Source of the DNA: Escherichia coli
Lineage (GTDB): Bacteria > Pseudomonadota > Gammaproteobacteria > Enterobacterales > Enterobacteriaceae
NCBI RefSeq assembly: GCF_041248615.1
Contig: NZ_CP158426.1
Length of the DNA: 64,000 nt
Direction: 5' to 3' (one strand)
Shown: one piece after another, positions 730-13,037 of the stretch
Layout: every line of letters begins with the position of its first letter
Position numbering within the stretch: position 1 is the stretch's first letter
Notes under the pieces: model-generated
What the model saw: only the letters and a program-made list of their open reading frames with translations
Database searches by the model: none
What the model was told of the DNA's origin: nothing
Position numbers and translations under genes: made by a program

Positions 730-1701
730 TTACTGTTGCAATTCTTTCTCAGTGAAGAGATCGGCAAACAATGCGGTGCTTAAATAACGCTCACCCGATG
801 ACGGTAGAATAACCACAATATTCTTGTTGGTAAAGCTTTCATCTTCTTGTAGTTTCAACGCCGCAGCAACAGCTGCTCCAGAAGAGATACCTGCAAGAAT
901 ACCTTCTTCTTCCATCAGACGACGCGCGGTAGAAATGGCTTCTTCATTGGTGATGCCAATGACTTTATCGACCAGCTTGAGATCGAGGTTCGCCGGGATA
1001 AAACCAGCGCCAATACCCTGAATTTTATGCGGGCCAGGTTTAATCTCTTCACCTGCCAGCGCCTGGGCGATAACTGGAGAATCGGTTGGCTCAACGGCGA
1101 CAGAGATAAGATCGGTCTTGCCTTTGGTGCCTTTAATGTAGCGGCTGACGCCGGTCAGCGTACCGCCAGTCCCAACGCCAGCAATAAATACATCAACCTG
1201 ACCGTCGGTATCTTCCCAGATCTCCGGACCGGTGGTTTTTTCGTGAATTTCAGGGTTTGCCGGATTGCTGAATTGTTGCAGCAGCAGGTATTTCTCTGGA
1301 TTGCTGGCGACAATTTCTTCTGCTTTTTGGATTGCGCCTTTCATGCCTTTAGCACCTTCGGTCAGCACCAGGTTTGCACCTAACGCTTTCAGCAGCTTGC
1401 GGCGTTCAATACTCATGGTTTCTGGCATGGTCAGGGTGAGTTTGTAACCGCGAGCGGCAGCGACATAGGCCAGTGCAATCCCGGTATTACCGCTGGTCGG
1501 TTCAACCAGTTCAACGCCTGGTTTCAGCACGCCGCGCTTTTCGGCATCCCAAATCATGTTGGCACCGATACGGCACTTAACGCTGAAGCTGGGGTTACGA
1601 GATTCCACCTTCGCCAGAATGCGTCCGTTACCGATGCGATTCAGGCGAACCAGCGGCGTGTGACCGATAGTCAGCGAGTTATCTTCAAAAATCTTACTCA
1701 T
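730..1701 (-). CDS. cysK: Cysteine synthase A (O-acetylserine sulfhydrylase)
   Basis: 323-aa ORF with PLP-enzyme motifs, recognised as CysK. Confidence 0.95.
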
Positions 1702-1885
1702 GGCCTGTCCTTAACTGTATGAAATTGGGATACAACAGGTAGCATACCCGCTCAGAGAATATGCGGAAGTAAGGATTTAGCATATCTATATGCAGAAGGG
1801 AAATAATGACATGCAAGATGGAATAAGGGGCGGCATAAGCCACCCCTGTTTCACACAAGCGGTTTACAAAATAACCGGTAGATTG

Positions 1886-2647
1886 TTACCGCCACATCGC
1901 GTGTTTATCGCGATAGCAATCGACCCACATCGCCGTCGCACCACAAACGGCAACGGGCATGATGAACAGATTAAGCAGCGGGATCATCGTAAACAGGCTG
2001 GTTAAAGCACCAAACTGCATATTGGTGATTTTGCGTGTGCGCAGGGCGGTGCGCATCTCTTTAAACGGCACTTTGTGGTTATCGAAGGGGTAATCGCAAT
2101 ACTGGATGGCTAACATCCAGGCGCTAAACAGGAACCACAGTACCGGCGCGACGGTTTGCCCAATACCAGGGATGAAGTAAAGAATTAGTAATACAATTGC
2201 GCGCGGCAGATACCAGGCAAATTTTTGCCATTCGCGTTTCATGATTCGCGGCACATCTTTCATGATACCGAAAATCCCGGTATCTGGCGGTGTAGCGCCA
2301 GTCAATCGTGCTTCCAGTTGTTCAGCCAATAAACCATTGAACGGAGCGGCAATCCAGTTAGCAATCGTTGAGAAGAAATAGCCAAACACTAACAGCACAG
2401 AGATGACAGCCAGAGGCCACAACAGATAGCTCAGCCATTGTAACCAGTCCGGAACATAACTCATGAGAGTCGGGATCCAGACATCGAGTTGCGTAAAGAG
2501 CCACCAGAATGCGCCCCCCATCAACAAAATATTGACCAGCAGCGGTAAAATAACGAAACGCCGAATCCCAGGTTGCGAGACGAGCTTCCAGCCTTGCGCA
2601 AAATAGTAAAAACCGCTGCGTGGGGCAGATGTGAATGATGAAACCAT
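1886..2647 (-). CDS. cysZ: Sulfate transporter CysZ
   Basis: 253-aa polytopic membrane ORF, recognised as CysZ; conserved position between cysK and zipA. Confidence 0.9.
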
Positions 2648-2876
2648 AATCAGGATGAGCTCCTTTTGACCAATCCCAGGAAAATTCTGCGTATTTTACC
2701 GGGTAATTGCGCAATGGACAGTTAGGATATGTTCGAAAAAACAGCAAAAAGCACGATTTCATCTATCTTTGTGCTGTGAAAGTTAATAGTGCACTTGCAC
2801 TTGAGGTAATCGGCAAATACTCTTAGTGAGTAAATGTTTGCCGTGGTGGCAAGGTGTTAGAACAACAGAGAATATA

Positions 2877-3875
2877 ATGATGCAGGATTTGCGTCTGATA
2901 TTAATCATTGTTGGCGCGATCGCCATAATCGCTTTACTGGTACATGGTTTCTGGACCAGCCGTAAAGAACGATCTTCTATGTTCCGCGATCGGCCATTAA
3001 AACGAATGAAGTCAAAACGTGACGACGATTCTTATGACGAGGATGTCGAAGATGATGAGGGCGTTGGTGAGGTTCGTGTTCACCGCGTGAATCATGCCCC
3101 GGCTAACGCCCAGGAGCATGAGGCTGCTCGTCCGTCGCCGCAACACCAGTACCAACCGCCTTATGCGTCTGCGCAGCCGCGTCAACCGGTCCAGCAGCCG
3201 CCTGAAGCGCAGGTACCGCCGCAACATGCTCCGCGTCCAGCGCAGCCGGTGCAGCAACCCGTGCAGCAGCCTGCCTATCAGCCGCAGCCTGAACAGCCGT
3301 TGCAGCAGCCAGTTTCGCCACAAGTCGCGTCAGCGCCGCAGCCAGTGCATTCAGCACCGCAACCGGCACAACAGGCTTTCCAGCCTGCAGAACCCGTAGC
3401 GGCACCACAGCCTGAGCCTGTAGCGGAACCGGCTCCAGTTATGGATAAACCGAAGCGCAAAGAAGCGGTGATTATCATGAACGTCGCGGCGCATCACGGT
3501 AGCGAGCTAAACGGTGAACTGCTTCTTAACAGCATTCAACAAGCGGGCTTCATTTTTGGCGATATGAATATTTACCATCGTCATCTTAGCCCGGATGGCA
3601 GCGGCCCGGCGTTATTCAGCCTGGCGAATATGGTGAAACCGGGAACCTTTGATCCTGAAATGAAGGATTTCACTACTCCGGGTGTCACTATCTTTATGCA
3701 GGTACCGTCTTACGGTGACGAGCTGCAGAACTTCAAGCTGATGCTGCAATCTGCGCAGCATATTGCCGATGAAGTGGGCGGTGTAGTGCTTGACGATCAG
3801 CGCCGTATGATGACTCCGCAGAAATTGCGCGAGTACCAGGACATCATCCGCGAAGTCAAAGACGCCAACGCCTGA
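2877..3875 (+). CDS. zipA: Cell division protein ZipA
   Basis: Start placed at [21 protein letters not shown] (track ORF starts upstream at GTG 2826); N-terminal TM helix, P/Q-rich linker, C-terminal FtsZ-binding domain. Confidence 0.9.
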
Positions 3876-3904
3876 TACACTTAAGGCAAATTAACTCCTC
3901 TTCG

Positions 3905-3928
3905 AACCCCCGCTTGTCGGGGGTTTTT
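3905..3928 (+). terminator. Intrinsic terminator after zipA
   Basis: cccccg...cggggg stem followed by TTTTT. Confidence 0.55.
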
Positions 3929-3936
3929 AGCATTGA

Positions 3937-5961
<2,025 letters not shown>

Positions 5962-5962
5962 G

Positions 5963-6181
5963 ATGGAAAAAGAGCAGCTGATTGAAATAGCCAATACGAT
6001 AATGCCGTTTGGCAAATACAAAGGGCGTCGCTTAATCGACCTGCCGGAGGAGTATCTTCTGTGGTTTGCCCGCAAAGATGAGTTCCCGGCAGGGAAGCTC
6101 GGTGAGCTAATGCAAATCACGCTGCTGATTAAAACTGAGGGGCTGACGCAACTGGTCCAGCCCCTGAAGCGTCCTCTTTAA
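5963..6181 (+). CDS. ypeB: DUF3820 family small protein
   Basis: 72 codons starting MEKEQLIEIANTIMPFGKYKGRRL, ATG one base after the ligA stop; track ORF 5870-6181 is a 5' over-extension. Confidence 0.8.
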   Translation: MEKEQLIEIANTIMPFGKYKGRRLIDLPEEYLLWFARKDEFPAGKLGELMQITLLIKTEGLTQLVQPLKRPL

Positions 6182-7176
6182 GCTTTATTGGCGCGGCTTT
6201 CCTGCTGCGCCTGTAACTGTTCGGTCTGGTGTTTGTATCGACGCGCCAGCACCGCACAGACCATCAATTGGATCTGATGGAAAATCATCAGAGGCAGCAC
6301 CATCATACCGATCACCGATGTGGGGAAAAGAATGTTTGCCATCGGGATGCCATTTGCCAGACTCTTTTTCGAACCACAAAAGACGATAGTAATTTCATCT
6401 GCCTTATTGAAGCCCAGTCGGCGTGCCATAAAGACGTTAACTACAATCACGATAGCCAGAAGAACGCAGCTGACCACCACGATAAACAGCAATGATCCCC
6501 AGCCAACTTTATGCCAGATACCATTAACGACGGCTTCGCTGAACGCTGTATAAACCACCAACAGAATGGACGTCTGGTCAGTTTTCGCAATCCATTTTTT
6601 ATTGCGCGACACCCAGTCACCAATCCACGGCCGGGAAAGATGCCCCAACACAAACGGCAGCAGCAGTTGCAGCATAATTTTACCGACCTGCTCAAGGCTG
6701 CCTCCCGCACCGTGAACATTCATCACCAGACCAACCAGCAATGGTGAAAGGAAAATCCCCAACAGGCTGGATGCTGACGCAGAACAAACCGCTGCCGCGA
6801 CGTTACCGCCCGCCATTGAAGTAAAGGCGATTGCAGACTGCACGGTAGCGGGGAGAATGCACAAGTAGAGAAAACCGGAGTAGAGCATCGGGTCGACATT
6901 TACCGGTTTCCACCAGGCAAACAGCACGCCCAGAATCGGAAATAGTACAAAGGTGCTGCACATTACCCACAAATGCAGTCGCCAGTGACCACCGCCAGCA
7001 ATAATCGCTTCACGCGACAACTTCGCGCCGTGCATAAAGAACAGCAGGGCAATAGCTGCGGTGGTCAGATTTTCAAAGAAGGGGACGAAATCGCCTCTGG
7101 CCGGAAAGAAAGAGGCCAGCAACACCACCGTGATCAGGGTTAAGGTGAAAGGATCGAGGATACGAAAAAGTTTCAT
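6178..7176 (-). CDS. yfeH: Putative bile acid/sodium symporter family transporter
   Basis: 332-aa polytopic membrane ORF, recognised as YfeH. Confidence 0.85.
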   Translation of the reverse strand: MKLFRILDPFTLTLITVVLLASFFPARGDFVPFFENLTTAAIALLFFMHGAKLSREAIIAGGGHWRLHLWVMCSTFVLFPILGVLFAWWKPVNVDPMLYSGFLYLCILPATVQSAIAFTSMAGGNVAAAVCSASASSLLGIFLSPLLVGLVMNVHGAGGSLEQVGKIMLQLLLPFVLGHLSRPWIGDWVSRNKKWIAKTDQTSILLVVYTAFSEAVVNGIWHKVGWGSLLFIVVVSCVLLAIVIVVNVFMARRLGFNKADEITIVFCGSKKSLANGIPMANILFPTSVIGMMVLPLMIFHQIQLMVCAVLARRYKHQTEQLQAQQESRANKA

Positions 7177-7265
7177 AAAGACTCCAGATGATCGATGGTT
7201 CTATTGTGCTTCTTCCAGTTTGAGAAATAAAATTGATTTATTGCATCCATTCATGAAGAAAACAG

Positions 7266-8192
7266 ATGAATTATTCTTTAAAGCAATTAAAGGTTTTCGT
7301 CACAGTAGCGCAGGAGAAAAGTTTTAGTCGTGCAGGAGAGCGTATCGGCCTGAGTCAGTCGGCAGTAAGTCACAGTGTGAAGGAGCTGGAAAATCATACT
7401 GGTGTTCGCCTGCTGGACAGAACCACGCGTGAAGTGGTGCTTACAGATGCAGGGCAGCAGTTGGCTTTGCGTCTTGAGCGACTGCTGGATGAACTTAACA
7501 GCACGTTGCGCGATACCGGGCGTATGGGGCAACAACTGAGCGGAAAAGTTCGGGTCGCTGCCAGCCAGACCATTTCCGCGCATCTTATTCCGCAATGCAT
7601 TGCTGAAAGTCATCGCCGCTATCCAGATATTCAGTTTGTCCTGCACGATCGTCCGCAGCAGTGGGTGATGGAAAGTATTCGCCAGGGAGATGTCGATTTT
7701 GGCATCGTCATCGATCCAGGCCCAGTGGGCGATCTGCAATGTGAAGCGATTCTTTCCGAGCCTTTCTTCTTGCTTTGCCATCGCGATAGCGCTTTGGCCG
7801 CGGAAGATTATGTACCCTGGCAGGCATTACAGGGAGCGAAATTGGTGTTGCAGGATTACGCGTCAGGCAGCCGACCGCTGATTGACGCAGCGCTGGCGCG
7901 CTATGGTATTCAGGCGAATATTGTGCAGGAGATTGGACATCCGGCGACGCTGTTCCCGATGGTAGCCGCAGGCATCGGCATTAGTATTCTTCCCGCACTG
8001 GCGCTGCCATTGCCTGAAGGTAGCCCACTGGTGGTGAAGCGCATTACGCCGGTGGTGGAACGCCAGTTGATGCTGGTGCGCAGGAAAAACCGTTCACTTT
8101 CCACCGCCGCACAAGCGTTATGGGACGTGGTACGAGACCAGGGCCGTGCTCTAATGGCTGGGCGGGAAGGGGATCCGCTGTATCAGATATAG
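7266..8192 (+). CDS. yfeR: LysR-family transcriptional regulator
   Basis: 308 aa with N-terminal HTH ([38 protein letters not shown]), divergent from yfeH. Confidence 0.85.
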
Positions 8193-8229: not shown

Positions 8230-8994
8230 TCAGAAATTAAATTTGATGGAGTAGATTATTGCATCCTGGTAAAAATCTTCGCCCAGTTTGTCATCCGCAT
8301 AACGATACTGAATTCCTGTGGTGATGTGTGAAGTTGCATTCCACCAAAGTGCGACGGCACCGTTCAGACCTTCTTTGCCGCCATTACCTGCCGCGTAGGT
8401 GGCATCACGATCAAACTCGTACTCGTTCCAGTTGGTGAGGGTGAATTTCTCACTGCCCAGCATAAAGCTGTAACCTGCAACCCAACCGGCGACATAACCG
8501 TTATCGCCGGTATAATAGGTTTGGTCTGTATAGCGTTTTGCAAAGAACGGTTTGAACCACCAACCGCTGCCGGTGAAATTGTAGCCGATACCGTACAGGA
8601 ACATATCGTCGTGGAAATTCACGCGATTCGCAGAACCGTAGGTGCCATACGCATGCAAGTAGAAATTAAATCCGGTGTCACCCAGGTAAATACGGTTGGT
8701 ATTTTTAAATGTATAACGCTGCTCGCTACCCGGTTTATCATGACGATCATTATAAAAGTTTTCCCAGTCGAAGAACCCGTACATTTCTCCCCAACTAAAG
8801 TTAGCGCCGCCTTCCAGTTCCAGATATCCAAAATCATCTTTGTGTGATTTGGTCGACGATTTCTCAGTGGTTCTGCTAGTCCAGTCAAGATAATGAATAC
8901 CTATATCAGCAAAACCGCCTTTAAATTCTGCATGGGATACTGCTGGTATCGCCAATACAGAAGAGAGTGTCAGAGTAAAAAGATGTTTTTTCAT
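8230..8994 (-). CDS. yfeN: Tsx-like outer membrane protein
   Basis: 254 aa, signal peptide MKKHLFTLTLSSVLAIPAVSHA, aromatic-rich beta-barrel-like sequence ending in F. Confidence 0.8.
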   Translation of the reverse strand: MKKHLFTLTLSSVLAIPAVSHAEFKGGFADIGIHYLDWTSRTTEKSSTKSHKDDFGYLELEGGANFSWGEMYGFFDWENFYNDRHDKPGSEQRYTFKNTNRIYLGDTGFNFYLHAYGTYGSANRVNFHDDMFLYGIGYNFTGSGWWFKPFFAKRYTDQTYYTGDNGYVAGWVAGYSFMLGSEKFTLTNWNEYEFDRDATYAAGNGGKEGLNGAVALWWNATSHITTGIQYRYADDKLGEDFYQDAIIYSIKFNF

Positions 8995-9242: not shown

Positions 9243-10076
9243 ATGTCTCAGGCTCAGTTTTCTCATAACCCACTGTATTGCGTAGATATTATCAAGACTT
9301 ATAAACCTGATTTCACGCCACGAGTGGCCTTTATTTTAGGTTCCGGGCTGGGCGCGCTGGCCGATCAGATTGAGAACGCGGTCGCAATTTCCTACGAAAA
9401 GCTGCCTGGGTTCCCGGTAAGTACCGTACATGGCCATGCGGGTGAGCTGGTGCTGGGTTATCTCCAGGGGGTGCCAGTGGTGTGCATGAAAGGTCGCGGA
9501 CATTTCTACGAAGGTCGTGGGATGACCATCATGACGGATGCAATCCGTACCTTTAAGTTGCTGGGCTGCGAGTTGCTGTTCAGCACCAATGCGGCTGGCT
9601 CACTGCGTCCTGAAGTGGGGGCCGGCAGTCTGGTCGCATTGAAAGATCACATCAACACCATGCCGGGAACGCCGATGGTGGGTCTTAATGATGAACGTTT
9701 TGGTGAGCGCTTCTTCTCGCTGGCGAATGCCTACGATGCGGAATACCGCGCACTGTTACAAAAAGTGGCGAAAGAAGAGGGGTTCCCTCTGACGGAGGGC
9801 GTGTTCGTCTCGTATCCGGGTCCGAATTTCGAGACTGCGGCGGAAATTCGCATGATGCAAATTATTGGTGGGGATGTTGTTGGTATGTCTGTGGTGCCTG
9901 AGGTTATTTCTGCTCGCCATTGCGAACTTAAAGTCGTTGCGGTCTCTGCGATTACCAACATGGCGGAAGGTCTGAGTGACGTGAAGCTTTCTCATGCCCA
10001 AACGCTGGCAGCAGCGGAGCTCTCAAAGCAAAACTTTATTAATCTTATTTGCGGCTTTCTGCGCAAAATTGCCTGA
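9243..10076 (+). CDS. xapA: Xanthosine phosphorylase (purine nucleoside phosphorylase II)
   Basis: 277-aa ORF, PNP family, recognised as XapA. Confidence 0.9.
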   Translation: MSQAQFSHNPLYCVDIIKTYKPDFTPRVAFILGSGLGALADQIENAVAISYEKLPGFPVSTVHGHAGELVLGYLQGVPVVCMKGRGHFYEGRGMTIMTDAIRTFKLLGCELLFSTNAAGSLRPEVGAGSLVALKDHINTMPGTPMVGLNDERFGERFFSLANAYDAEYRALLQKVAKEEGFPLTEGVFVSYPGPNFETAAEIRMMQIIGGDVVGMSVVPEVISARHCELKVVAVSAITNMAEGLSDVKLSHAQTLAAAELSKQNFINLICGFLRKIA

Positions 10077-10136
10077 GTAAAACAACAATAAACGGCCTCA
10101 CTGAGTGAGGCCATATGATGCGACAAGGAAACGATT

Positions 10137-11393
10137 ATGAGCATCGCTTTGCGCTTAAAGGTAATGTCCTTTTTGCAATATTTTATCTGGGGGAGCTGGC
10201 TGGTTACCCTCGGTTCTTACATGATTAATACCCTTCATTTCACCGGCGCTAATGTTGGCATGGTTTACAGTTCCAAAGGGATCGCCGCGATTATTATGCC
10301 TGGTATAATGGGGATCATCGCAGACAAATGGCTGCGTGCAGAACGTGCATACATGCTGTGTCACCTGGTGTGTGCAGGCGTACTTTTTTATGCGGCATCC
10401 GTAACTGATCCGGATATGATGTTTTGGGTGATGTTAGTCAATGCGATGGCGTTTATGCCGACTATTGCGTTATCGAACAGCGTCTCTTATTCCTGTCTTG
10501 CCCAGGCAGGGCTTGACTCGGTGACCGCTTTCCCGCCCATTCGCGTTTTTGGTACGGTGGGGTTCATTGTCGCCATGTGGGCAGTAAGCCTGCTGCATCT
10601 GGAATTGAGTAGTCTGCAGCTGTATATCGCGTCCGGTGCGTCATTGCTGCTGTCGGCTTATGCGCTGACTTTGCCGAAGATTCCGGTTGCGGAGAAAAAA
10701 GCGACTACATCGCTTGCCAGCAAGCTGGGTCTGGATGCCTTCGTGCTGTTTAAAAATCCACGCATGGCTATCTTTTTCCTCTTCGCCATGATGCTGGGCG
10801 CGGTGCTGCAAATTACCAACGTTTTTGGCAACCCGTTCCTGCATGATTTCGCCCGTAATCCTGAGTTTGCTGATAGCTTCGTGGTGAAATACCCGTCCAT
10901 TTTACTGTCAGTTTCACAGATGGCTGAAGTCGGTTTCATTCTGACGATACCGTTCTTTTTGAAGCGTTTCGGTATTAAAACCGTCATGCTGATGAGTATG
11001 GTGGCGTGGACGCTGCGCTTTGGCTTCTTCGCCTATGGCGATCCGTCAACAACCGGATTTATTTTGCTGCTGCTGTCGATGATTGTTTATGGCTGTGCAT
11101 TCGATTTCTTCAATATTTCTGGTTCGGTATTTGTCGAACAGGAAGTTGATTCCAGCATTCGTGCCAGCGCGCAGGGCCTTTTTATGACGATGGTAAATGG
11201 CGTCGGCGCATGGGTTGGCTCGATTCTGAGCGGTATGGCAGTGGATTACTTCTCGGTGGATGGCGTAAAAGATTGGCATACCATTTGGCTGATGTTTGCA
11301 GGGTATGCTCTTTTCCTCGCAGTGATATTTTTCTTTGGGTTTAAATATAACCATGACCCTGAAAAGATAACGCATCGTTCAGTTACACATTAA
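10137..11393 (+). CDS. xapB: Xanthosine permease (MFS nucleoside:H+ symporter)
   Basis: 418-aa 12-TM ORF, recognised as XapB. Confidence 0.9.
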   Translation: MSIALRLKVMSFLQYFIWGSWLVTLGSYMINTLHFTGANVGMVYSSKGIAAIIMPGIMGIIADKWLRAERAYMLCHLVCAGVLFYAASVTDPDMMFWVMLVNAMAFMPTIALSNSVSYSCLAQAGLDSVTAFPPIRVFGTVGFIVAMWAVSLLHLELSSLQLYIASGASLLLSAYALTLPKIPVAEKKATTSLASKLGLDAFVLFKNPRMAIFFLFAMMLGAVLQITNVFGNPFLHDFARNPEFADSFVVKYPSILLSVSQMAEVGFILTIPFFLKRFGIKTVMLMSMVAWTLRFGFFAYGDPSTTGFILLLLSMIVYGCAFDFFNISGSVFVEQEVDSSIRASAQGLFMTMVNGVGAWVGSILSGMAVDYFSVDGVKDWHTIWLMFAGYALFLAVIFFFGFKYNHDPEKITHRSVTH

Positions 11394-11445
11394 AAGGATT
11401 CGCAGCTCTGTTCCTTGGGGCTGCTTTTATGATAAAGGTTAATTA

Positions 11446-11604
11446 GTGAAAGATATTTTATTTTCTTCTGGCGTTGGTTTTGGCATTGGTGCTTTGTTTA
11501 CAATCGTGCGCTTGCCTATTCCTGTACCAAATGTATTACCGGGTATATTATCCATTGTGTTTATGTATGTCGGATATCTGGTGGTGAAATACTTTATGCC
11601 ATGA
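11446..11604 (+). CDS. Small hydrophobic protein, XapX-like
   Basis: 52-codon ORF (GTG start, AAGG 8 nt upstream) VKDILFSSGVGFGIGALFTIVRLPIPVPNVLPGILSIVFMYVGYLVVKYFMP; too short for the ORF track; sits between xapB and xapR. Confidence 0.5.
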   Translation: MKDILFSSGVGFGIGALFTIVRLPIPVPNVLPGILSIVFMYVGYLVVKYFMP

Positions 11605-11644
11605 TAATTTAATACGATGTATTTTTTATATGGAGCACTTAATT

Positions 11645-12529
11645 ATGGAACGCGTATATAGAACAGATCTTAAGTTGCTCCGTTATTTTCTTGCAGTAGC
11701 GGAAGAGTTGCATTTTGGTCGCGCAGCAGCGCGTTTAAATATGTCTCAGCCTCCGCTCAGTATTCATATTAAAGAGCTGGAAAATCAACTCGGCACGCAG
11801 CTTTTTATTCGCCATTCGCGCAGCGTCGTACTGACACACGCGGGCAAAATCTTGATGGAAGAATCGCGTCGATTGTTGGTGAATGCAAATAATGTATTGG
11901 CTCGGGTTGAACAAATAGGTCGGGGAGAAGCAGGGCGGATTGAACTCGGGGTTGTGGGAACGGCAATGTGGGGACGGATGCGCCCGGTTATGCGGCGATT
12001 CCTTAGAGAAAATCCTAACGTTGAAGTTCTGTTTCGCGAAAAGATGCCTGCGATGCAAATGGCCTTGCTGGAACGCCGCGAACTTGATGCCGGAATCTGG
12101 AGAATGGCGACAGAACCACCGACTGGTTTTACCAGCTTACGGTTGCATGAATCGGCGTTTCTGGTGGCGATGCCTGAAGAGCATCATCTCTCATCATTTT
12201 CCACCGTCCCGCTGGAAGCGCTAGGTGACGAGTATTTCGTTACAATGCCGCCCGTGTACACTGACTGGGATTTTTTGCAGCGAGTTTGCCAGCAGGTGGG
12301 ATTTTCACCGGTTGTTATTCGCGAAGTTAATGAACCGCAAACGGTACTCGCCATGGTCAGTATGGGTATTGGTATCACATTGATAGCGGACAGCTACGCG
12401 CAGATGAACTGGCCCGGTGTCATATTCCGTCCGCTCAAAGAACGCATCCCGGCAGACTTATATATTGTTTATGAAACGCAGCAGGTGACGCCCGCGCTGG
12501 TTAAACTGCTGGCGGCGTTGGCGCAGTAG
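11645..12529 (+). CDS. xapR: LysR-family activator of xapAB
   Basis: 294 aa from MERVYRTDLKLLRYFLAVAEELHFGRAAARLNMSQPPLS; track start 11630 is an over-extension. Confidence 0.9.
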   Translation: MERVYRTDLKLLRYFLAVAEELHFGRAAARLNMSQPPLSIHIKELENQLGTQLFIRHSRSVVLTHAGKILMEESRRLLVNANNVLARVEQIGRGEAGRIELGVVGTAMWGRMRPVMRRFLRENPNVEVLFREKMPAMQMALLERRELDAGIWRMATEPPTGFTSLRLHESAFLVAMPEEHHLSSFSTVPLEALGDEYFVTMPPVYTDWDFLQRVCQQVGFSPVVIREVNEPQTVLAMVSMGIGITLIADSYAQMNWPGVIFRPLKERIPADLYIVYETQQVTPALVKLLAALAQ

Positions 12530-12605
12530 ATGAGAGGCACGGGAACTGCCGGACATAGTTGGTCTGATAAGCGAAGCGCATCAGGCAATTTCGCAAATTG
12601 CAGAT

Positions 12606-12636
12606 AGCAAAAAAGCGCCTTTAGGGCGCTTTTTTA
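12606..12636. terminator. Bidirectional terminator (tRNA operon / xapR)
   Basis: aaaaaagcgcc-ttta-gggcgctttttt hairpin with flanking A and T runs. Confidence 0.6.
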
Positions 12637-12639
12637 CAT

Positions 12640-12715
12640 TGGTGGGTCGTGCAGGATTCGAACCTGCGACCAATTGATTAAAAGTCAACTGCTCTACCAA
12701 CTGAGCTAACGACCC
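12640..12715 (-). tRNA. lysV: tRNA-Lys (anticodon UUU)
   Basis: Reverse complement reads GGGTCGTTAGCTCAGTTGGTAGAGCAGTTGACTTTTAATCAATTGGTCGCAGGTTCGAATCCTGCACGACCCACCA. Confidence 0.9.
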
Positions 12716-12719
12716 GAAG

Positions 12720-12795
12720 TGGTGGGTGATGACGGGATCGAACCGCCGACCCCCTCCTTGTAAGGGAGGTGCTCTCCCAGCTGAGCTAATCACCC
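12720..12795 (-). tRNA. valY: tRNA-Val (anticodon UAC)
   Basis: Reverse complement reads GGGTGATTAGCTCAGCTGGGAGAGCACCTCCCTTACAAGGAGGGGGTCGGCGGTTCGATCCCGTCATCACCCACCA. Confidence 0.9.
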
Positions 12796-12841
12796 ACTTC
12801 GGTACTTCACATTGTTACAAGAAATTTAGCTGGCGAGAAAG

Positions 12842-12917
12842 TGGTGGGTGATGACGGGATCGAACCGCCGACCCCCTCCTTGTAAGGGAGGTGCTCTCCC
12901 AGCTGAGCTAATCACCC
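12842..12917 (-). tRNA. valX: tRNA-Val (anticodon UAC)
   Basis: Second identical 76-nt tRNA-Val unit. Confidence 0.9.
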
Positions 12918-12961
12918 ACTTCTCAATTTCTTGCTACACGGCGGAGACTACATAAAGTAGT

Positions 12962-13037
12962 TGGTGGGTGATGACGGGATCGAACCGCCGACCCCCTCCT
13001 TGTAAGGGAGGTGCTCTCCCAGCTGAGCTAATCACCC
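12962..13037 (-). tRNA. valU: tRNA-Val (anticodon UAC)
   Basis: Third identical 76-nt tRNA-Val unit, first gene of the valU-valX-valY-lysV operon. Confidence 0.9.

Follow-up and report, generated by a model that had tools for sequence, protein, structure and literature searches.

In the xanthosine locus of Escherichia coli, the spacer that separates xapB from xapR holds a short open reading frame, xapX, which, judged from sequence comparisons, is a genuine protein-coding gene under purifying selection and not a chance ORF. Four independent lines of evidence lead to its classification as a gene: a family profile match, the presence of orthologues, the pattern of substitutions, and the conservation of length. 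For its product we propose, with a probability of about 0.4, that XapX is a non-essential inner-membrane accessory factor of nucleoside uptake or catabolism, acting in E. coli most plausibly on XapB. The genes xapA, xapB, and xapR form a textbook inducible transport-and-catabolism unit and a model genetic switch, and xapX is a conserved fourth gene inside it. Without a nucleoside-related role, xapX would be an ordinary, already catalogued hypothetical gene. The features of the locus are listed below with their positions in the window, that is, the whole stretch of 64,000 nucleotides that was analyzed.

8230 to 8994, minus strand: yfeN, on the 5' side of xapA.
9243 to 10076, plus strand: xapA, xanthosine phosphorylase, first gene of the cassette (a listed ORF, annotated as xapA by RefSeq in an identical locus).
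10137 to 11393, plus strand: xapB, xanthosine/H+ symporter of the NHS family of MFS transporters, directly upstream of xapX.
11402 to 11430, plus strand: terminator-like hairpin (9-bp stem at 11402 to 11424 with a 5-nt loop, then UUUUAU), from a consensus scan and RNA folding.
11435 to 11438, plus strand: AAGG, a Shine-Dalgarno-like motif 7 nt 5' of the xapX start codon, seen in the sequence.
11446 to 11604, plus strand: xapX coding sequence, 52 codons from a GTG to a TGA stop, assigned from TIGR03510 (64.2 bits), RefSeq WP_000651752.1, and dN/dS.
11449 to 11505, plus strand: predicted hydrophobic helix 1 of XapX, codons 2 to 20, with a glycine ladder (G9, G11, G13, G15), from AlphaFold2 and the alignment.
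11506 to 11535, plus strand: predicted turn of XapX, V-R-L-P-I-P-V-P-N-V, codons 21 to 30, from AlphaFold2 and the family alignment.
11536 to 11595, plus strand: predicted hydrophobic helix 2 of XapX, codons 31 to 50, from AlphaFold2 and the family alignment.
11632 to 11635, plus strand: GGAG, the Shine-Dalgarno sequence of xapR, 9 nt before ATG 11645, from the sequence and the RefSeq start.
11645 to 12529, plus strand: xapR, LysR-type activator of xapAB, directly downstream, 40 nt past the xapX stop.
12640 to 13037, minus strand: lysV-valY-valX-valU, downstream of xapR and followed by gltX.

The initial annotation had placed a GTG-initiated ORF of 52 codons at 11446 to 11604 of the plus strand, and these coordinates are correct in both the sequence and the ORF listing; the AAGG that it described upstream is also present, 7 nt 5' of the GTG. 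The coding sequence ends with a TGA (11602 to 11604) immediately followed by a TAA, and an in-frame TAA at 11440 to 11442, just 5' of the GTG, means that xapX cannot start further upstream. The encoded peptide, MKDILFSSGVGFGIGALFTIVRLPIPVPNVLPGILSIVFMYVGYLVVKYFMP, is strongly hydrophobic (GRAVY 1.31). The spacer length first reported, 236 bp, has to be revised: the longest ORF of xapR starts at ATG 11630, the RefSeq start, preceded by GGAG, is ATG 11645, and with this accepted start the distance between xapB and xapR becomes 251 bp. Downstream of xapR, an RtT sRNA repeat is annotated in W3110 between xapR and the tRNA-Lys gene lysV (4745 to 4870 in its locus extract); the window (12530 to 12640) and the 100%-identical NZ_OW967178.1 lack this repeat, and xapR is followed by the tRNA-Lys/Val/Val/Val cluster within ~110 bp.

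Regarding its family, XapX matches the NCBIfam model TIGR03510 ("XapX") with 64.2 bits (E = 5.8e-18) over profile positions 2 to 48 of 49, above the curated cut-off of 27.8 bits, so the resemblance to the XapX family that had been suspected from the sequence is borne out by the profile search. The model, "XapX domain", takes its name from the ORF that separates xapB from xapR in E. coli. Our ORF has this genomic position and is the founding type of the family, to which no function has been assigned: it lies between xapB (which ends at 11393) and xapR (which starts at 11645), and the same order is found in six other genera. Orthologues of 52 residues and 71-87% identity were identified in Salmonella, Entomohabitans, Enterobacter, Citrobacter enshiensis, and Chimaeribacter, in all cases located between the orthologues of xapB and xapR. 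The length of 52 codons is kept in every orthologue except that of Limnobaculum (51), and the flanking spacers are variable in size (34-57 bp on the 5' side and 39-119 bp on the 3' side) and have diverged in sequence as well. In addition, purine-rich elements resembling a Shine-Dalgarno sequence are found at the corresponding place before xapX in all orthologous loci (AAAGG, AAAGGAGG, AAGAGG, GAAGGA, and GGGGG). Three genera use ATG as the start codon; the others use GTG.

The substitution pattern is that of a coding sequence. When compared with the orthologue species, xapX has dN/dS values of 0.03-0.17, with synonymous sites near saturation, and 25 of the 32 nucleotide differences between E. 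coli and Salmonella fall at third codon positions (binomial p = 2.7e-7). The omega value of xapX against Salmonella (0.068) is similar to those of its neighbors xapA (0.032) and xapR (0.041); that of xapB is 0.017. The xapX locus is not present in the supplementary lists of the E. coli studies of Stringer et al. 2021 or of PIRT-seq; it is important to consider that absence from such ribosome-profiling and ORF-screen lists is weak evidence, because xap was not induced in the media used.

These data also bear on the reading of the ORF as a regulatory uORF or leader peptide that controls xapR, or as an incidental ORF within a conserved xapR promoter, which we regard as highly improbable. The ORF does end 40 nt 5' of xapR on the same strand, and genomic SELEX placed a binding peak of the RpoN (sigma-54) holoenzyme within the xapB-xapR spacer, at ~2,522,542 of MG1655 (PMC8743547). 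However, selection acts on the amino-acid sequence, as indicated by the dN/dS range and the third-position bias; the ORF stays constant at 52 codons whereas its flanking spacers diverge in length and sequence; in other phyla, members of the family are followed by quite different genes (deoC, cdd, PNP) or by none; and there are xapR loci that do not carry the ORF. Regarding the promoter variant of this reading, strict and relaxed sigma-70 scans and a search for the sigma-54 GG-N10-GC consensus gave nothing convincing in 11380 to 11660, and the GG-N10-GC motif is absent from 11394 to 11644. The leader-peptide candidate was rejected on the basis of the constraint on the peptide, its homologues in front of unrelated genes, and the xapR loci without the ORF. 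The spacer was also considered as an RNA element and rejected in the absence of any Rfam family match, with a scan of 11250 to 11750 returning only one meaningless sub-threshold plastid match.

The gene is already catalogued in databases and is therefore not new. The identical protein is RefSeq WP_000651752.1, named "DUF1427 family protein", which is annotated in W3110 and in the 100%-identical strain; the NCBI pipeline annotated it, as full-length matches, in all 48 of the xap-carrying complete E. coli genomes that were sampled, 19 from one set of matches and 29 from another. The exact sequence occurs on at least 1000 public contigs, and a UniRef entry exists. The curated MG1655 record (NC_000913.3) lists no gene between xapR (b2405) and xapB (b2406). 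The description of this ORF as unlisted thus holds for the ORF track that had been supplied and for curated MG1655, but not for RefSeq, given its entries in W3110 and the 48 sampled genomes. As a result of its absence from curated MG1655, xapX is ignored by the knock-out collections, Tn-seq tables, expression atlases, and models that rest on this record. The statement that no function is established for the ORF agrees with our literature search by family name (XapX and DUF1427), protein accession, and Vibrio locus tag, which yielded no functional study; the only mentions found were in a domain census from 2005 and in a table of genes in a Citrobacter koseri genome paper from 2026.

It is important to note that the RefSeq product name does not correspond to membership of the Pfam family. 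A Pfam scan of E. coli XapX gave no match at E <= 1, and its relatives score only 11-27 bits against PF07235 (DUF1427), with 18-27 bits for the single-domain ones, all of them below its gathering threshold of 27.1 bits and covering only the N-terminal half of the 84-position model. Since the Pfam model misses E. coli XapX, the RefSeq name must reflect a looser relationship than Pfam membership; the assignment of XapX to Pfam DUF1427 was rejected, and the RefSeq label was not reproduced. The long "YVGRNE..." relatives under DUF1427 (Pandoraea, Oxalicibacterium, and Afipia) have the G-x3-G ... LPIPAP ... G core in common with XapX, but, unlike the E. coli protein, they have a charged C-terminal tail and formamidase-like neighbors instead of nucleoside genes.

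The conserved positions of the family coincide with the elements of a predicted membrane hairpin. An alignment of 31 diverse relatives shows no variation at P24, P26, P28, and G43 and almost none at G11 and G15, and the AlphaFold2 model built from these 31 sequences (pLDDT 93.1) has helices at residues 2 to 20 and 31 to 50 joined by a ten-residue proline-rich turn at 21 to 30. Both helices are uniformly hydrophobic and each is long enough to cross a bilayer, and the model thus favors the earlier prediction that the peptide would be embedded in the membrane. XapX displays the pattern of its family, a hydrophobic unit of ~50 residues with two helices, a G-x3-G in the first of them, and an L-P-x-P-x-P turn. 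No related structure was found in the PDB, either by a profile search with the sequence or by a Foldseek search with the model. Charge counts leave the topology of the short-type proteins ambiguous; the long-type relatives have a C-terminal tail that averages 3.3 Lys+Arg, which by the positive-inside rule suggests that the termini are cytoplasmic and the proline turn lies outside. On this basis, the termini of XapX probably face the cytoplasm.

Small and very hydrophobic peptides bring to mind the toxins of type I toxin-antitoxin systems and holin-like peptides, and one relative of XapX is weakly similar to a Pfam phage holin model (E = 0.02, sub-threshold). We consider this identity extremely improbable: XapX is predicted to fold into two helices on either side of a conserved proline turn and not into a single helix with a charged tail, the family is single-copy across phyla and found in metabolic operons, no antisense or other RNA family match was obtained in the region, and no phage context was seen. 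Membership of the type I toxins or holins was rejected on the basis of the two predicted helices, the metabolic operons across phyla, and the lack of an RNA family in the region.

The gene has been inherited together with xapA, xapB, and xapR as one cassette. It occupies the same position in Enterobacteriaceae, in Yersiniaceae, represented by Chimaeribacter, which keeps the order xapA-xapB-X-xapR in another chromosomal neighborhood (metG, rha), and in Budviciaceae; since the position is shared by three families, the simplest history is that the ancestral cassette had four genes and that X was lost several times afterwards. In Pragia and Limnobaculum, X remains adjacent to xapB despite the presence of deoC between X and xapR. 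The inserted gene of these Budviciaceae encodes a deoC-like aldolase (5001 to 5950 in the locus extract of Pragia fontium and 4865 to 5813 in that of Limnobaculum parvum); in Pragia, the longest-ORF call of deoC overlaps the end of X by 16 bp, and deoB is divergent, upstream of xapA.

The losses were identified in three species, Klebsiella huaxiensis, Citrobacter freundii, and Lelliottia amnigena, whose XapB orthologues have 78-88% identity and lie in the same yfeR/xapA/xapB/xapR/gltX neighborhood. Their xapB-xapR spacers measure ~100, 97, and 67 bp, respectively (4758 to 4857, 4758 to 4854, and 4758 to 4824 in the extracts), and no protein or DNA remnant of X was found in them. The expectation that the frame be maintained in other Enterobacterales therefore holds only in part: where it is present, it is kept at 52 codons, or 51 in Limnobaculum, under purifying selection, but it is missing in these three species. 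Three syntenic xap loci thus do without X, which makes it dispensable to the cassette, and XapB has no strict need of it.

Within E. coli, the xap operon was found in 4102 of the 5426 complete genomes and the xapB-xapR spacer in 4077, and the remaining 1324 (~24%) have no match to xapA-xapR (9243 to 12529 of the window), so that the ORF goes with the operon. Two allele classes occur among the carriers, one of 1523 genomes (95-99% identity) and one of 2563 (90-95%); the xap locus of the window has 94.6% identity to the K-12 type, a high divergence for a chromosomal locus of E. coli. In strain FDAARGOS_944, an IS1 (3288 to 4073 in the extract) stands in place of xapA, xapB, and the 5' two thirds of xapX, and only xapR and query positions 164 to 236 of the spacer are retained.

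Regarding the expression of xapX, the RNA fold of the whole 70-nt hairpin region after xapB is not better than that of shuffled sequences (z = -0.38). The hairpin and its T-run also follow xapB in Salmonella, Citrobacter, and Enterobacter, and they are retained in the loci of Klebsiella and C. freundii that have no X; as it occurs in such loci, the hairpin looks like the terminator of xapAB, with X located beyond it. With a terminator-like hairpin between xapB and X and no promoter consensus found, the co-expression of both genes is putative. In our proposal, the mRNA of xapX would come either from read-through of the weak hairpin after xapB, which would be induced by xanthosine, or from the xapR transcript, and ribosomes would begin at the GTG, by way of the Shine-Dalgarno sequence that belongs to xapX itself.

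To what extent the family keeps company with nucleoside genes was determined by a scan of one genome per species that identified 69 XapX-type loci, a sample biased towards members that carry the pattern of the scan (LPIP[AV]P[NP]V...) and covering only part of the XapX family. All the family members tested scored above the TIGR03510 cut-off. Two types were distinguished, a short one of ~52-57 residues that starts with "MKE..." and is XapX-like, and a long one of ~64-88 residues with a "YVGRNE"-like start and a charged tail. The neighboring genes were called in each locus and labeled by means of Pfam and seed searches; the xapB homologues carry Pfam Nuc_H_symport. The arrangements with nucleoside genes were the following.

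xapA-xapB-X-xapR: Enterobacterales.
xapA-xapB-X-deoC-xapR: Pragia and Limnobaculum.
tatD-nupC(CNT)-X-deoC-deoA-deoB: ten Vibrio and Photobacterium species.
nupC-X: Endozoicomonas and an Oceanospirillales strain.
nupC...X...deoB: an Enterobacterales MAG.
pdp-deoC-X-cdd, with gaps of 42 and 15 bp: Bacillus taeanensis.
X, followed after 13 bp by two PNP_UDP_1 phosphorylases: Alkalihalobacillus and a Bacillus species.
pdp-X, with a gap of 15 bp: Ammoniphilus.

A gene for nucleoside transport or catabolism lies within two genes of X in 15 of the 24 short-type genera and in none of the 13 long-type genera (Fisher p = 2.3e-4). The other nine short-type genera, among them Exiguobacterium, Cohnella, and Mesobacillus, present other contexts. 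In ten species of Exiguobacterium the gene follows ppx-ppk (exopolyphosphatase and polyphosphate kinase) after a gap of 65-75 bp (~1200 to 5170 in the extracts), with no nucleoside connection; in Cohnella it lies beside an Lnt-like gene; and in Mesobacillus it is convergent with the gene of a formate/nitrite (FNT) transporter (5197 to 6036 in the extract), with a Crp-like regulator nearby. The long-type genes are flanked by FmdA_AmdA (formamidase/acetamidase-like) genes, as seen in three loci (~3400 to 8000 in the extracts), and one of these neighbors is fused to an AraC-type regulator. The formamidase-like and FNT neighbors hint that small nitrogen or one-carbon products may be involved.

Such unrelated contexts, namely those of the ten Exiguobacterium species, Cohnella, Mesobacillus, and the long-type genes, are what would be expected if XapX were a general-purpose small membrane protein, a folding or packing helper or an organizer of lipids, with no role in nucleoside metabolism, which would have hitch-hiked in xap for historical reasons and would be made constitutively, in small amounts, along with xapR. 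The clean loss of X from three syntenic xap loci, the terminator-like hairpin that separates it from xapB, and the distance of only 40 nt to xapR are in line with this explanation, which we consider somewhat unlikely. What speaks against it is that nucleoside genes adjoin X in at least five arrangements in both Gammaproteobacteria and Bacilli, with the bias of 15/24 against 0/13 genera given above; the recurrence of nucleoside neighbors in unrelated arrangements makes hitch-hiking unlikely. A further point against it comes from the Budviciaceae, where X stays by xapB when deoC parts it from xapR.

A further explanation, in our view rather improbable, is that XapX, acting alone and not through the nucleoside transporter, assembles into a small channel or carrier that would move something released when nucleosides are broken down, either a free base or a small by-product such as ammonium. 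This would explain why X is found in operons of cytoplasmic enzymes without a transporter (pdp-deoC-X-cdd and X-PNP-PNP) and why it accompanies unrelated transporter families, and the relatives beside formamidase-like genes and a formate/nitrite transporter would fit it as well. Helix 1 of XapX has a glycine ladder, and helix surfaces of this kind support oligomerization. Nevertheless, neither helix has polar or charged residues that could line a pore, and the explanation is based on context, with no solved structure or fold match in its support.

We return to the reading of XapX as an accessory factor of nucleoside uptake or catabolism. According to this proposal, XapX would be a 52-residue inner-membrane protein whose helices, joined by the invariant Pro-x-Pro-x-Pro turn, pack through small-residue (GxxxG-type) faces, and it would modulate or stabilize the xanthosine symporter XapB, in the manner of the small proteins that tune larger transporters. 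A subunit dedicated to a transporter is difficult to reconcile with two observations: XapX-type proteins accompany two structurally unrelated transporter families, and in Bacilli the gene lies among genes of cytoplasmic enzymes with no transporter called adjacent to it. Owing to these unrelated transporters and enzyme-only contexts, a transporter-specific subunit is a poor fit. A broader version of the proposal, which we judge doubtful, is that the short XapX-type hairpins serve nucleoside salvage as dedicated accessory factors in the membranes of both Gammaproteobacteria and Bacilli, acting on or beside structurally unrelated importers (NHS-type XapB and CNT-type NupC) and the phosphorylase and deaminase enzymes. 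If this broader version is correct, the hairpins would be a hitherto overlooked part of an E. coli catabolic system that is among the best studied, and a part still missing from the K-12 reference annotation. In either version, the association with nucleoside genes across phyla offers a concrete and cheaply testable hypothesis for a family without an assigned function.

Several small inner-membrane proteins bind or tune larger transporters or membrane enzymes, such as AcrZ with AcrB, KdpF with KdpABC, MgtS with MgtA, and CydX with CydAB. The link of XapX to these modulators rests on gene neighborhood, and the comparison is an analogy and not a matter of membership: AcrZ, KdpF, MgtS, and CydX have one transmembrane helix, whereas XapX is predicted to form a two-helix hairpin, and there is no sequence relationship between them. 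Like these proteins, XapX has about 50 residues or less, is hydrophobic, is encoded at a transporter operon, and is dispensable in some lineages, and it could thus be another small membrane protein that tunes transporters.
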